NCBI GenBank assembly: GCA_965262115.1
Contig: OZ253496.1
Location: 128,001-192,000, forward strand
Source: Nitrospinales bacterium
GTDB taxonomy: Bacteria; Nitrospinota; Nitrospinia; Nitrospinales; VA-1
Length of the DNA stretch: 64,000 nt
Reading direction: 5' to 3'
In this document: positions 1 through 63,055 of the stretch, one piece after another
Position numbering within the stretch: the stretch's first letter is position 1
Layout: the number at the start of each line of letters is the position of its first letter
Notes under the pieces: model-generated
Told to the model about the DNA's origin: nothing
What the model saw: only the letters and a program-made list of their open reading frames with translations
Database searches by the model: none
Made by a program: the position numbers and the translations under genes

Positions 1-285
1 GTTTTGGCGGGGGTAACTACAAGTTAAACTTCTATGAAGGTCCATCTTTTATTGTTTGCGTCAATTTTAAACCTAAGGGAGAGCCCAAGTGGATTCCCTT
101 ACTTCCCGAAAAAGCTGGTTCTGATCCTGAACCGGCGTAACCGCCGGGGGCAGTGAGCAATGGCTTTATACCTCTCCGGGGCACGAAGGCTTAGGGATAA
201 TCACGTCTGGCTAGGAACAAGTTGTCTCGGCTTAACAAATCATTGCTACTTTACCCTTTTGGGGCAGGAATGTTGAGGAAGAATA

Positions 286-798
286 GCACCTTTTCGCGGA
301 TGATTTGGTGAACGGGGCCCCGAATTTTCTTTCAGGGGTGAATAAGGTTTTGGACTTCAGCCTTCTGGAAAAGGAGTTGTCAGGGATTTATAGCTGCAAT
401 ACGGGCCGCCCGTCTTATCCGCTGGTTCTTTTATTCAAAACCCTTTTGCCGCAAAATGGTACAACCTTTCTGATCCTGGCCTGGAAGAAGCGTTGTCGGG
501 CCGGATCAGCTTTCGCCGTTTTGTGGGCTTGAGCTTACCGGTTGCGGCGGACGCGATACATCGGTTCAAATCACCCTGGCTTGCAGGGCCATGAATATAA
601 AACGATGCCTTGTTTTAGCCCGGACCTGAAAGAGGTGTGGATGGGAGAGAAAAAGCCTTGAGAATGCGGAGAAGCGGAAAACAAACAGCAATAAAAACCG
701 CATGAAACAGAGAAAATTAGTCAAAAAATAACGATCTGTTCTGAAGGCCAACGCGATTCAACCCCGATTACTCAAATATACCCTGATGCAAAGGTCTC
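286..798 (+). mobile_element. Defective IS5-family (IS1106-like) element, copy A: left end missing, transposase frameshifted and internally deleted, right terminal repeat intact
   Basis: N-terminal transposase reads FADDLV...GRPSYP...LLFK, then in a shifted frame KWYNLSDPGLEEALSGRISFRRFVGL. It jumps at ~535 to a C-terminal remnant. It ends in ATGCAAAGGTCTC (786-798), the reverse complement of a GAGACCTTTGCA IS1106-type end. 261-527 matches the reverse complement of ~3778-4043. Confidence 0.8.
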
Positions 799-1260: not shown

Positions 1261-3113
1261 ATGCTGTTGAAAGTTCAGATTATTAAATGTGTGGTGTTTA
1301 CCGCAACCTGTATGCTTGCCTCGCTTGGTGCCGCCCAAACAATTACCATCAATGAAGGGGATATGCGCTCTGAGACGGTCACCTTGTCAGACCCTGACAC
1401 GATCATCATCAACAATGGCGAAATCACAACGGGGAGTGAGGTGAAAACCATAAACAGTGAGGGAACCACAAGCACAACAGTAATAGGAAGCCGCTCTCAC
1501 GGCATTTTCTCGTCAGGCTCTGGCGCGATGATCACCAATAATGCGGACGGCACAATCACAACGGCAGGAAGCGTCTCTCACGGCATTTCCTCGGATGGCT
1601 TTGACGCGGTCGTCACCAATAGCGGCGCAATCACAACGACAGGATTCCAATCTCACGGCATTTTAATTTTAGCGCAGGGGATTGACGGGACTGACGCGGT
1701 CGTCACCAATGACGGCGCAATCTCAACGACTGACGATAGCTCTCACGGCATTTTCTCGTCAGGCTCTGGCGCGACCATCACCAATAGCGGCGCAATCTCA
1801 ACGACTGGCGATAACTCTCACGGCATTTTCTCGGAGGGCGATGGCGCAATTACCATCAGCGGCAGTGTGTCTGTCAGTGGCGAGAATTCCTTTGTGGTGA
1901 AAGGGTCCGATGCGGGAGATCAAACGCTGACCCTGGGTCGTGGAGCGATGACGAACGGGGCGTTTAGTCTGGGAGAAAGGGATAACGACAATGATATCGC
2001 CAACATTTGGGTGGCTGACACCGCAAGGTCGTCGACTTACACTATCGGCGGGGCGACCTCATCAATCTGTTTAACAACGAAGAGCAAGACGCGCGGGTAC
2101 TTCAACTGCCGCAGGTAAGGAATGTTGCTGGCGATACTGTGGCTGTGCTCGACCCGACGGGTTCGTCCGCCGAACGCATGGCGCTGGGTTCTGCCGCAGG
2201 CCAGATATACGCCGTGGTGTTTCAGCGGTTGGCGGACGTGCGACGGCCTGAGAGGCTGGGCGGCGACGCTGGCAGGACAACCAGAGGGTCCGGCTGGGGT
2301 ACTTTTTTCGGTGGTGGGCACGAGCGTGATGACGACGGCCTGGCGCTGGCTTGGTCGAGCAACCGTTTTGGTGCGGTCGGGGGCTACGATATCCGCCTGG
2401 ACAGCAGGCATCGGGTCTGCCTGTTTGCCGGGGGCAGCCGCGGGCATATTGAAACCGATGCCAGATCAATTGAGACCGACACCAACAGCGGGTTTATCGG
2501 CGCTTACGGGCAACGGACTCTGGGCGGCGGCTGGGACCTGAGCGGGTCAGTGACCATCGGCTATGAAAGCCATAACAGCGATCGCGCCGTGTTCGACAAC
2601 CTCGCAGGGGATGAAACCGCTGACGGGGATTACGGCAGTTTCTATGTCAATCCGTCCTTGGCTCTCGCATGGTTTCATAAACTGGAAGACGGCTTTGAGT
2701 TCCGGCCCAGCGCGCAGATTGCCTATACCTACGGTCATTATAGCGGTTACACCGAAAGCGGCACGGAAAACTCCAATTTACGCTTCGATGGCCGGGATGT
2801 GCATATTTTCGACAGCCGCCTGCAACTGGCGCTGGCGCAATCCTTTACCGAGGACCGGGGAGAGCTTGAGGTGCGCGGCGGCGCTACGTTCACGCATTAT
2901 GGTGATGACAATGCCGGTGTCAGCCTGGGCGGAGGTGATTCAATCTCTTACCGGGTGCCGGGTGACGAGACCATCCCCGCCGGGTATGTGGGTGCCAGTC
3001 TGCGTTACGCCGTCAGGAAAACGATCAACCTGGTCAGCGATGTGGAATATCACAATGGCACGGGCGGCACGGAATCCATATCGGGTTATCTGGGGCTGAG
3101 GGTTCGGTTTTGA
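1261..3113 (+). pseudogene. Autotransporter (type Va) with repeat-rich passenger, split by one frameshift near 2050-2056
   Basis: Signal peptide, then ~24-aa repeats ITNSGAITTTGxxSHGI (ORF 1261-2118). ORF 2139-3113 is a beta-barrel ending in ...YLGLRVRF, and its frame is open upstream to ~2055. Confidence 0.85.
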
Positions 3114-4062
3114 CGCGGAGATTCTTAAGGCTTTTTCTCTCCAATCGACACCTCTTTCAGGTCCGGACTAAAACAAGGCATCTTTTTATATTCATGGCCA
3201 TGCAAACCAGGGTGATTTGAACCGCTGTCCACGTCAATCCGATATAGCGTCGTGCCCTGCGCACAACGGTAATGGTTCTTAAGGATACCGAAGACATGTT
3301 CTACGGGGGAGCGTAATTTAGTCATGCGTTTGTTGAATGCGGTCTGAGCAGGTTTCAGGGGATGATACTGATTGGGCCGATGCATGATGCCAGCAAAAAT
3401 ACCGCGCTCTTCAAGCGCCTTACGCCGGGCGCGTTTGTCATAAGCCTTGTCTGCATACACCGCTTTCTCATCACCCATCACCAGGTCATCGACCGGTGTC
3501 GTGTCATTGACATTGGCCGGGGTGATGATCACACGGCGAACCCATCCGGACTTCCGATCTACTGCCGTATGCATCTTGTAACCGCAAGCATTTTCTTTAT
3601 GTTGGCGACCGTACACACCGGCTTCGGGGTCTACCGCTTTTTTCGGACTGGAAGAGCGAACAAACGATGCGTCCAGCATCGTTCCCTGTTTGATCACAAA
3701 GCCCTGCGATTCAAACTGGGTATTTAACGAGGACAATAACTTGTTGTAACGGTCTCCCGGTTGAAAACGAAACCGGCCCACAAAACGGCGAAAGCTGATC
3801 CGGCCCGACAACGCTTCTTCCAGGCCAGGATCAGAAAGGTTGTACCATTTTGCGGCAAAAGGGTTTTGAATAAAAGAACCAGCGGATAAGACGGGCGGCC
3901 CGTATTGCAGCTATAAATCCCTGACAACTCCTTTTCCAGAAGGCTGAAGTCCAAAACCTTATTCACCCCTGAAAGAAAATTCGGGGCCCCGTTCACCAAA
4001 TCATCCGCGAAAAGGTGCTATTCTTCCTCAACATTCCTGCCCCGAAGCAACTGTGTTAAATG

Positions 4063-5013
4063 TCAAGTGCTGGCAATGAGATTTTCATTCCAGAGTGTTT
4101 TTGTTTTGATCATGGTATTGATGATCGTTAATAACTTTCTCATGCATGCGGTAATGGCAACTTTAAAGGGTTTGCCCTTTTCGATGAGGCGTGTGTAAAA
4201 GGTACGAATCACGGGATTATGCTGCATGGCAGTGACGGCGGCCATGTATAAAGCGGCACGCACATTGGCGCGGCCGCCCCAGATACACCGGCGGCCCCGG
4301 AACTTTCCGCTGTCCCGATTGAGGGGAGCGAGACCGATAAGGGCGGCGATTTGCTTCTGATTAAGAACTCCAAGTTCCGGAACCCCGGCCAAGAGGTTGA
4401 CAGCCAGAACGGGACCGGCACCGGGAACACTTTGTATAATCTGGTCGTGCTCACGCCAGGCAGAACTGTTTTTGATGGTTCTGGAAAGGTCGCCATCGAT
4501 TTTTCGCAAGCGTTTTTTAAGAGATTCGATATGCTCCTTAATGTCTTTACATATCCATTTTGGAGCTTGTTTTAGACGGGTTTTTTCTTTGGTCAGCATC
4601 TCGATCAACTGGCGACGGCGTGTCACTAGAGCTGAGAGTTCAAGAGATTCTTCGTCTTTGATTTTCCTGACCTCAGGACGTACGGCCCTGGCAAAATGGG
4701 CCAGCACAAGAGAATCAATGACATCGGTTTTTGCCAGTTTCCCGGTGGCTTTGGCAAAATCACGAACTTGCCGTGGGTTGACCACGGCTACTGGCAGTCG
4801 ACCCGCAACCAGGGCCGAAGCCAACGGGATCTCTAAGCCGCCTGTGGCTTCCAAAACGATCAATGGAGGATTTAAGGCGGATAAACTCTCGACCAAACCA
4901 GCAATCCCTTCCTCATTGTTAGCGGTTTGCCAGGTTTCTTGAGTCATGCTGTCAGCAACATCCAGATGGAGTTTAGAAATATCGATGCCAATAAAATGGG
5001 GTTTCTGATTCAT
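4063..5013 (-). CDS. IS110 recombinase (DEDD RuvC-like domain plus Tnp domain)
   Basis: GIDISK, VLEATG and KTDVID supply the DEDD residues; PLNRDSGK carries the catalytic Ser; ACMRKLL near the C-terminus. Intact 316 aa. Confidence 0.95.
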   Translation of the reverse strand: MNQKPHFIGIDISKLHLDVADSMTQETWQTANNEEGIAGLVESLSALNPPLIVLEATGGLEIPLASALVAGRLPVAVVNPRQVRDFAKATGKLAKTDVIDSLVLAHFARAVRPEVRKIKDEESLELSALVTRRRQLIEMLTKEKTRLKQAPKWICKDIKEHIESLKKRLRKIDGDLSRTIKNSSAWREHDQIIQSVPGAGPVLAVNLLAGVPELGVLNQKQIAALIGLAPLNRDSGKFRGRRCIWGGRANVRAALYMAAVTAMQHNPVIRTFYTRLIEKGKPFKVAITACMRKLLTIINTMIKTKTLWNENLIAST

Positions 5014-5015
5014 AA

Positions 5016-5225
5016 TTTGGTCTCCCAGCCTTGCCGATGCGGGCTCAGTGGCCCAGGCAACTGTTCGGGTTAATCAAAATAGGACACAACGATCTGCGCT
5101 TCGGGACGGGCTTAAAAGCCCAAGGGGTAAACGATCTATTGTGCCCTGAATCAAATCCTGGGAGCTTGTGGAAAACACAAAACCGGCTTCCCACAGGGCT
5201 CACAGGTACAACTACTACAAATTCC
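5016..5225 (-). ncRNA. Predicted IS110 bridge RNA (5' stem-loop, target-binding loop, donor-binding loop)
   Basis: 5' hairpin at 5157-5206. Target loop closed by GGGCACAAT/GTTGTGTCC with internal hairpin GGGCTT-TT-AAGCCC, flanked by TTTACCCCT (5131-5123) and CCCGAAG (5105-5099). Donor loop has ACAGTTGC (5064-5057), hairpin GGGC-CACTGA-GCCC and CAAG (5033-5030). RNA ends are approximate. Confidence 0.85.
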
Positions 5226-5405
5226 CCTTATGAACAACATACAAGGGGTACAACGGACCCAGTTGCTTTTGCATTCCCATTCCTCCAGCAATCGTTAAAA
5301 AAATACCTCAACGCATTATAAACCTGTCTCCAAATGCTATACTTATGCAAAGGTCTCTTGTTAGAGGGCCAGCCTGACCCATCCTGCAATCTCGAGTTTT
5401 GATTT

Positions 5406-29910: not shown

Positions 29911-30019
29911 TCCCCTCCCTTCATAGGGAGGGGTTAGGGGAGGGTTGGATTATGAATTCCGTAAAAATAATCCACACCCCTCCGCGGCTACGCCTTGCCT
30001 CCCCTCATGAGAGGGGAGG
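29911..30019. repeat. REP-like doublet (CCCTCCCTTCATAGGGAGGG arm plus inverted degenerate arm)
   Basis: Arm at 29911-29953 and inverted arm at 29967-30019; same family as 55474-55515 and 56733-56773. Confidence 0.7.
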
Positions 30020-55392: not shown

Positions 55393-55473
55393 TGCTAGGC
55401 GCACGGCCGACTGCAATAGCTCTTACTGGTGAGCAAAAAGTTGTCTCGGCTTCAAAAGATTTTCCCATTTTCT

Positions 55474-55515
55474 TCCCTCCCTTCATAGGGAGGGACTGAG
55501 GGAGGGTTGGCTAAT
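55474..55515 (+). repeat. REP-like arm (left)
   Basis: CCCTCCCTTCATAGGGAGGGACTGAGGGAGGGTTGGCT; inverted partner at 56733-56773. Confidence 0.75.
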
Positions 55516-61646: not shown

Positions 61647-61728
61647 AGCTCCCCGCCCACTAGCCTCGGGGGCAGTAGCCGTGATATTCTTCCTCAACAT
61701 TCCTGCCCCGAAGCAACTGTGTTAAATG

Positions 61729-62679
61729 TCAAGTGCTGGCAATGAGATTTTCATTCCAGAGTGTTTTTGTTTTGATCATGGTATTGATGATCGTTAATAA
61801 CTTTCTCATGCATGCGGTAATGGCAACTTTAAAGGGTTTGCCCTTTTCGATGAGGCGTGTGTAAAAGGTACGAATCACGGGATTATGCTGCATGGCAGTG
61901 ACGGCGGCCATGTATAAAGCGGCACGCACATTGGCGCGGCCGCCCCAGATACACCGGCGGCCCCGGAACTTTCCGCTGTCCCGATTGAGGGGAGCGAGAC
62001 CGATAAGGGCGGCGATTTGCTTCTGATTAAGAACTCCAAGTTCCGGAACCCCGGCCAAGAGGTTGACAGCCAGAACGGGACCGGCACCGGGAACACTTTG
62101 TATAATCTGGTCGTGCTCACGCCAGGCAGAACTGTTTTTGATGGTTCTGGAAAGGTCGCCATCGATTTTTCGCAAGCGTTTTTTAAGAGATTCGATATGC
62201 TCCTTAATGTCTTTACATATCCATTTTGGAGCTTGTTTTAGACGGGTTTTTTCTTTGGTCAGCATCTCGATCAACTGGCGACGGCGTGTCACTAGAGCTG
62301 AGAGTTCAAGAGATTCTTCGTCTTTGATTTTCCTGACCTCAGGACGTATGGCCTTGGCAAAATGGGCCAGCACAAGAGAATCAATGACATCGGTTTTTGC
62401 CAGTTTCCCGGTGGCTTTGGCAAAATCACGAACTTGCCGTGGGTTGACCACGGCTACTGGCAGTCGACCCGCAACCAGGGCCGAAGCCAACGGGATCTCT
62501 AAGCCGCCTGTGGCTTCCAAAACGATCAATGGAGGATTTAAGGCGGATAAACTCTCGACCAAACCAGCAATCCCTTCTTCATTGTTAGCGGTTTGCCAGG
62601 TTTCTTGAGTCATGCTGTCAGCAACATCCAGATGGAGTTTAGAAATATCGATGCCAATAAAATGGGGTTTCTGATTCAT
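61729..62679 (-). CDS. IS110 recombinase
   Basis: 316 aa; differs from copy 1 only at ARAVRP/AKAIRP. Confidence 0.95.
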   Translation of the reverse strand: MNQKPHFIGIDISKLHLDVADSMTQETWQTANNEEGIAGLVESLSALNPPLIVLEATGGLEIPLASALVAGRLPVAVVNPRQVRDFAKATGKLAKTDVIDSLVLAHFAKAIRPEVRKIKDEESLELSALVTRRRQLIEMLTKEKTRLKQAPKWICKDIKEHIESLKKRLRKIDGDLSRTIKNSSAWREHDQIIQSVPGAGPVLAVNLLAGVPELGVLNQKQIAALIGLAPLNRDSGKFRGRRCIWGGRANVRAALYMAAVTAMQHNPVIRTFYTRLIEKGKPFKVAITACMRKLLTIINTMIKTKTLWNENLIAST

Positions 62680-62681
62680 AA

Positions 62682-62891
62682 TTTGGTCTCCCAGCCTTGC
62701 CGATGCGGGCTCAGTGGCCCAGGCAACTGTTCGGGTTAATCAAAATAGGACACAACGATCTGCGCTTCGGGACGGGCTTAAAAGCCCAAGGGGTAAACGA
62801 TCTATTGTGCCCTGAATCAAATCCTGGGAGCTTGTGGAAAACACAAAACCGGCTTCCCACAGGGCTCACAGGTACAACTACTACAAATTCC
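62682..62891 (-). ncRNA. Predicted IS110 bridge RNA (copy 2)
   Basis: Same sequence as 5016-5225. Confidence 0.85.
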
Positions 62892-63055
62892 CCTTATGAA
62901 CAACATACAAGGGGTAAAGATCTGTCTCGGCTGAAAAAGACATGGCTCATTACTAGCGTAGGTTCTCCGCTTGATTATTCTTTCCAAACCCTGATCCTTT
63001 TGATAATTTGAATTCCACGATCAATATTTTTAATAACTTTTAACCTCCAAATAAA

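Follow-up and report, generated by a model that had tools for sequence, protein, structure and literature searches.

Here we describe an insertion sequence of the IS110 family that very probably enters the hairpin head of a short dispersed repeat by IS621-type bridge recombination, the circle, the guide RNA and the catalytic step being modelled on IS621. The ends of the element, its core and target, guide-like matches to that target, covariation of guides with flanks in relatives, the abundance of the repeat and its empty alleles can be read directly from the genomes compared. The window analysed, a stretch of 64,000 nucleotides, corresponds to G000:C1:128001-192000, where G000 is a genome assembled as a single 2.68-Mb contig.

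The element lies at 61712-62911 on the minus strand and measures 1,200 bp if the two CT cores (62910-62911 and 61712-61713) are counted in, boundaries set by flank divergence at 26 left and 26 right ends; a second copy (4046-5245, minus strand) differs from it at three positions. It consists of a 230-bp non-coding left end upstream of the gene, the gene itself and a right end of about 15 bp, with the short CT core at both junctions and no longer target duplication at either. The gene (61729-62679, minus strand) encodes a recombinase of 316 aa matched by both Pfam models, PF01548 for the N-terminal DEDD domain (D11, E55, D97, D100) and PF02371 for the C-terminal Tnp domain with its catalytic serine (S235). 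The protein aligns with the recombinases of IS621 (8wt6, E 5.8e-30) and ISCro4 (9t56, E 9e-33), and its D11, E55, D97, D100 and S235 fall on the catalytic residues of IS621 as named in the accessible part of PMC11208158. Its closest named relatives are from Nitrospinaceae, at 65-73% identity, and the element is an IS621-type IS110 (IS110 family, IS110 group).

G000 carries 23 copies of full length, of which 21 belong to the main type and two to an 88% variant, together with several pieces; the gene is intact in 15 copies and seven have a 10-bp deletion in common. All 26 right ends read ACAGTTG-CT and then run into a repeat head, which begins TCGGGGC in 23 cases, GCGGGGC in two (the 88% variant) and with one base fewer in the last, and identity among all right ends ceases 5-9 bases past the core. 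Among the 26 left-end matches, 22 adjoin TACCC, three adjoin variants of the ACCCC type and one comes from a left end that is duplicated internally. The rebuilt insertion target has 14 bases, TTTACCC-CT-TCGGG. In the window its left part, TTTACCC, stands at 62912-62918 (minus strand), where TACCC (62912-62916) makes up the first 5 bp of a split 39-bp repeat, the right 32 bp of which (61680-61711, minus strand) begin with the right target TCGGG (61707-61711). The second copy likewise splits a repeat, with the right part at 4014-4045 (minus strand) and the left part at 5246-5250.

Rearranged ends were also encountered. At G000:C1:2144616-2144781 the first 163 bp of the left end are tandemly duplicated at an internal CT that mismatches the target guide, an arrangement that might resemble the product of a half-match event as set out in the accessible part of bioRxiv 10.64898/2026.08.31.748434. 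At G000:C1:2519309-2519439 two left-end stubs, joined head to head, form a long inverted repeat, and at one locus of a related genome (L264, G060:C31) a 22-bp left-end stub is joined straight to the rest of a repeat that itself contains an inverted repeat copy.

The repeat is 39-41 bp long in 192 of 200 measured copies, and its consensus, TACCC-x-TNC-x'-GGGCAYGAA ... ATCACR, comprises a hairpin head and a 24-nt unpaired tail. G000 holds 262 intact heads, compared with one and two in two Markov-4 genomes, and the repeat was found in 29 of the 61 family genomes, with no control matches. The closing pair may be C:G, G:C or T:A, and among 243 six-base heads 211 have retained Watson-Crick closure along with a GNA loop on the opposite strand. 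That the loop is a GNA triloop is suggested by this covariation and by the accessible parts of PMC13037366 and PMC3201870; a ViennaRNA DNA fold of one head gave 4-nt loops and no triloop. On the GNA strand the hairpin ends in GGGTA followed by a variable base, and no fixed tetranucleotide tag was seen there. The hairpin foot of REP/BIME sequences bears a tetranucleotide of the GTAG type. The repeat nests within itself, within other repeats and within an IS3, and a search of G000 (93.9% complete; 6 of 14 controls positive) for a Y1 (RAYT/TnpA) transposase, PF01797, returned no matches. Viral contigs showed no junction between insertion sequence and repeat. No published description of the repeat or the element was found in searches of the literature on Nitrospina/Nitrospin- insertion sequences, IS110 and extragenic palindromes; the IS110 target tables in the supplement of PMC11208160 could include this clade.

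Other small repeats and mobile elements touch upon this one. Further small dispersed repeat families, represented in the window at 29913-29953 and 55475-55515 and at 207-238 and 55426-55457, form mosaics with the 40-bp repeat. In an IS3 at G000:C1:695240-696530, and in about 17 further IS3 copies or pieces, a 41-bp repeat copy lies directly past an A6G frameshift site; these copies lack target duplications and have flanks in common. An in-frame fusion of orfA and orfB by the 41-bp repeat was ruled out by frame analysis, which places orfB in the +1 instead of the -1 frame.

Perfect targets are found in only 28 of the 262 intact heads. Conversely, all 28 TACCCCTTCGGG sites in G000 are repeat heads, as are 29 of the 30 ACCCCTTCGGG sites, and 231 of 262 heads lie outside ORFs of at least 120 aa (31 inside); by crude calls, such ORFs make up 78% of the genome. 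Because the repeat supplies nearly all genomic guide matches and sits mostly between genes, it serves as a landing pad, in agreement with the safe-harbour role that an earlier note on this DNA had assigned to it. The 127 empty C:G-closed heads of G000 divide into 40 with TAC, 31 with TGC, 28 with TCC and 28 with TTC, whereas the intact right flanks of the main element are TTC throughout (16 distinct flanks, about nine lineages), a preference of 9/9 flank lineages against 28/127 empty heads (p 4e-6). G:C-closed heads, of which 69 stand empty, contribute none of the 26 junctions. Distinct flanks number 18 on the left and 18 on the right; since flanks in G000 have been shuffled, the 26 junctions amount to about 9-16 events. 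For a site that the element occupies in some IS3 copies, seven further IS3 copies are exact empty alleles, three of these with an altered right target. Empty sites rebuilt without an IS3 flank contain no spanning ORF above 115 aa, which fits a harmless landing site within the limits that shuffled flanks set on this test.

A related genome, G060, offers a second set of flanks: its 19 right ends have 19 different ones, 18 of them in repeat heads, and the repeat is therefore target and not cargo. The flanks begin TCGGG in 13 cases, TTGGG in three, CCGGG in two and TAGGG in one, and the first base past the core is T at 17/19 occupied sites against 7/26 empty heads (p 5e-5). The left pattern matches 18 times, in 16 cases at an element end that follows TACCC or CTACCC and twice at sequence that is no element end. 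The guide for this genome was taken from L111, a locus with the same end sequences, the element body being absent from the G060 assembly; the left guide of L111 carries A at the core T.

The evidence within the window is weaker than it first appeared, and the genome-wide evidence much stronger. The proposal of the earlier note that the element lands in a dispersed hairpin repeat is upheld with the qualification that selectivity goes with the 14-nt match to the guide and not with the repeat as a whole; its expectation of more copies is answered by the 262 intact heads, and its placing of the repeat outside the element by empty alleles with identical flanks and by the 19 distinct right flanks in G060. 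The two window copies indeed have exactly 27 bp in common past the CT core (61685-61711 and 4019-4045), an IS-free repeat copy is present, and the rebuilt target contains the CCCC-TTC-GGGG hairpin. That IS-free copy (252-290, plus strand) is not an equal module, however: it reads TACCC-TT-TTGGGG, TT standing where the CT core would be and the GNA loop being absent. Nor do the three copies lie in different contexts, for the 271 bp at 258-528 duplicate 3776-4046 in inverted orientation; the copy at 252 and the occupied one at 4015 being one sequence, the three are not independent evidence. The 27-bp stretch taken for a family module occurs three times in the genome at up to two mismatches, always in the window, and so reflects shared descent and not the consensus of the family. 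The 34-nt probe proposed for a genome search gave no matches at 0-1 mismatches and one at two. A second IS-free copy with a TCC loop (169-205, plus strand) had been overlooked in the first reading. In the same region, at 258-665, 1261-3113 and 3121-4046, a deleted inverted IS5/IS4-type DDE copy and a longer copy bracket an autotransporter gene, which is split into two ORFs.

The left non-coding end (62680-62909, minus strand, as are all features of this paragraph) is predicted to specify a bridge RNA with a 5' stem, a target-binding loop and a donor-binding loop. Its fold has a z-score of -3.1, and 7 of 25 consensus pairs show two-sided changes among 12 relatives. Both predicted target guides lie on opposite sides of one internal loop: the left guide TTTACCCCT (62789-62797) equals the left target plus core and covaries with flanks, and the right guide CCCGAAG (62765-62771) is the reverse complement of the core plus right target; both 7-mers occurred together in 8 of 20,000 shuffles. 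The next loop holds the predicted donor guides, of which the left, ACAGTTGCC (62722-62730), matches the left donor plus core at 8 of 9 positions and is conserved in relatives. The right donor guide CAAG (62696-62699) would be followed by a handshake GC (62694-62695) in an IS621-like layout (62694-62699), as the right target guide would be by a handshake CG (62763-62764). These CG and GC bases pair better with the swapped partner and seem to behave like handshake guides; the handshake and donor-guide layout used for comparison is that in the accessible part of PMC11208158.

Agreement between predicted guides and flanks extends across relatives. Both ends and a parsable target loop were available at 39 of 160 related loci, which yielded 28 distinct guide pairs; guide and flank agree at 232 of 252 positions, against 94.8 +/- 8.5 expected and a maximum of 128 in 5,000 permutations, the parsing pattern requiring CT and AG at the core and core positions being left unscored. 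Positions 1 and 2 of the left guide agree poorly with flanks (6/28 and 10/28). The 88% variant has the right guide CCCGCAG and sits in a TGC head, a single event seen twice with the same right flank. Five further relatives lie in the head of the TACCC repeat. Right guides of relatives read CCCGGAG (G029, G011), CCTGGAG (G019), CCCGTAG (L138) and CCCGAAG (L111), and at the position facing the free loop base all four letters occur among seven close relatives. Agreement with flanks is partial. At the first base past the core the G029 guide predicts C where flanks show T, T, C, T and G, that of L138 predicts A where the site has T, and that of the G005 element predicts A where the flank shows C; the G019 guide fits its flank only with two G-U/G-T wobbles. 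G029 has just eight repeat heads, and three of its five right flanks lie outside repeats yet match the guide. A sister element at 65%, with the guides TTTCCCCCT and GGGTTAG, is inserted in a different repeat (with 20 copies in G005, 15 in G028 and none in G000), and in G028 two right ends of the sister type lie in that repeat despite 150 heads of the TACCC repeat. From the guide-matching sites of repeat-poor G029 and the sister element in its other repeat, it follows that targeting follows the guide.

Several observations adjoin the subject of ends and guides. Many relatives at 50-60% lie in what appear to be other hairpin repeats and have guides of their own (L038-L046, L080, L082, L113-L117, L147, L168, L186, L109), and eight loci of one Dehalococcoidia genome have about 25 bp of flank in common. 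On the strand opposite the predicted bridge RNA, at 62670-62826 (plus strand), Rfam sX15 (RF02234) scores 36 bits against a cut-off of 55 (E 7e-4); the sX15 family may derive from an IS110 end, and a literature search found nothing. In the integrated state, at 62890-62917 (minus strand), the left target can pair with the start of the left end (CCCCTTGT with ATAAGGGG), which gives the split hairpin arm a new partner.

By analogy with IS621, the element would circularise at its CT core, and the joined ends would read TTGACA-17-TATGTT. This predicted promoter, complete only in the circle, would combine a -35 box that overlaps the recombinase stop codon (61727-61732, minus strand) with a -10 box (62902-62907, minus strand) 17 bp away across the inferred junction; a junction promoter is described for IS621 in the accessible part of PMC11208160. 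The donor loop of the RNA would hold the circle junction and the target loop the repeat head, where the predicted bridge RNA would base-pair with the 14 target bases, and the DEDD/serine recombinase would exchange strands at the one CT, so that insertion splits the repeat hairpin. The element reads sequence: it uses C:G-closed heads with a TTC loop and passes over the other variants. Contigs from eight of 22 sequencing runs contain no joint from right end to left end, a result that, coming from assembled contigs only, weighs neither way. Run X20, whose RNA nature is a guess, covered 61894-62111 only. One X7 contig connects 61710 and 62910 with one other letter, the shorter side having just 30 letters, a weak hint of an empty TGC-type head with the left flank of the window element; X8 has a joint that skips 1,250 bases, with unknown letters between. 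Runs X1 and X3 may be the source of the genome and do not count as independent.

A possible though doubtful refinement, compatible with guide-directed insertion, is that the guide gives the address while an extruded GNA-triloop hairpin raises insertion efficiency, as in ISPpu10. The preservation of closing pair and GNA loop in 211/243 six-base heads, across three closing types, would be in keeping with such a gate, as would the precedent of the REP stem-loop of ISPpu10 (bioRxiv 10.64898/2026.03.19.712850, accessible part). All eight CCCCTTCGGG sites outside repeats are empty, but these eight also fit the left guide less well. Moreover, TT or TA past the core breaks the GNA loop at 4/19 sites in G060, and 3/5 sites in G029 are outside repeats altogether. 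The guide pairs with the very bases of the stem arms, so that the hairpin would be in competition with guide pairing, two effects that genomic comparison is unable to tell apart.

Far less probable is that the association is mostly inherited, with few insertions spread by a repeat-carrying IS3 and by recombination between IS110 copies. IS3 sequence does flank 10 left and 8 right junctions, and several copies combine a left with a right flank that do not belong together; an IS3 flank also accompanies 7/7 copies of the frameshifted allele against 4/15 intact ones (p 0.004, overstated as the copies are related). IS3 hitchhiking and recombination inflate IS110 copy number, and inheritance explains part of that number, not specificity: G000 has 18 distinct flanks on each side, five more relatives lie in the same head, and the 19/19 distinct right flanks of G060 refute inheritance as the whole explanation. 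That the 27-bp flank belongs to the element, or that the IS110 recombinase spreads the repeat, is extremely improbable: the two window copies have those 27 bp in common and G000 yielded no Y1 (RAYT/TnpA) gene match, but right-end identity ceases 5-9 bases past the core, seven IS3 copies are empty alleles with the same flanks, the repeat ends have neither a CT core nor a donor-guide match, and in G033, with 5 contigs and 87 heads, the element is represented by no more than a 44-nt end remnant and a distant fragment. The element is an unlikely mover of the repeat.

Guide-directed insertion into the repeat head could be part of a longer association, in which an IS110 lineage, itself an RNA-guided parasite living on another parasite, follows a 40-base mobile element by way of both hairpin arms and the free loop base, guide and repeat coevolving. 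We consider this rather unlikely; it is suggested because four guide letters mirror four loop variants, and because insertion splits a conserved hairpin while variants with a swapped closing pair no longer contain the CT core and remain free of insertions (0/26 junctions against 69 G:C-closed heads). With four guide alleles, four loop variants and three closing pairs, the system forms a natural test set for bridge-RNA targeting, in which one can test single-base guide specificity and whether a hairpin overlapping the core is help or hindrance. It also adds another compact recombinase that uses a CT core and whose 7-nt right guide pairs in full.

REP/BIME sequences associated with RAYT are short, mostly intergenic hairpins that occur in hundreds of copies and form mosaics, and compensatory changes keep their structure. 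The window repeat resembles them as a short hairpin in more than 100 copies, mostly extragenic, with mosaics and structure-keeping changes, and differs in having no RAYT match in G000, a GNA triloop and a 24-nt unpaired tail ending in ATCACR. As far as the accessible parts of Tobes and Pareja 2006 (PMC1525189) and Siddiquee 2024 (PMC11187229) describe the REP-targeting ISs (ISPa11, ISPpu9, ISRm19 and others), the window element resembles them in choosing short palindromes, dispersed and extragenic, as specific insertion sites; unlike the REPs of those ISs, its repeat has no Y1 transposase match in its own genome, is 39-41 bp long with fixed ends, and nests in itself and in an IS3. ISPpu10 of Pseudomonas putida, according to the accessible part of bioRxiv 10.64898/2026.03.19.712850, is likewise an IS110 in an intergenic hairpin repeat, with a CT core, a permissive left guide, a stricter right guide and rearranged flanks. 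In ISPpu10, however, the left target forms the stem with an extension upstream of it, at a distance from the core, whereas the core of the window element lies inside the hairpin, and the GNA loop is dispensable at 4/19 G060 sites. With IS621 of E. coli and its bridge RNA, as presented in the accessible parts of Durrant 2024 (PMC11208160) and Hiraizumi 2024 (PMC11208158), the element has in common a DEDD and serine recombinase, a long left end with target and donor loops, the CT core, a predicted junction promoter, handshake-type bases and insertion into REP-type repeats. It differs in its distant protein (E 5.8e-30), its other target, a 7-nt right guide that is fully paired, a guide that spans both arms and the loop of a mini-hairpin, and a repeat that is not the E. 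coli REP. The new part is the target repeat, found undescribed in the literature searched; the mechanism is known from related elements, insertion of IS110 into REP-type repeats having been in print since at least 2006 and the bridge mechanism since 2024, according to the accessible parts of these sources.
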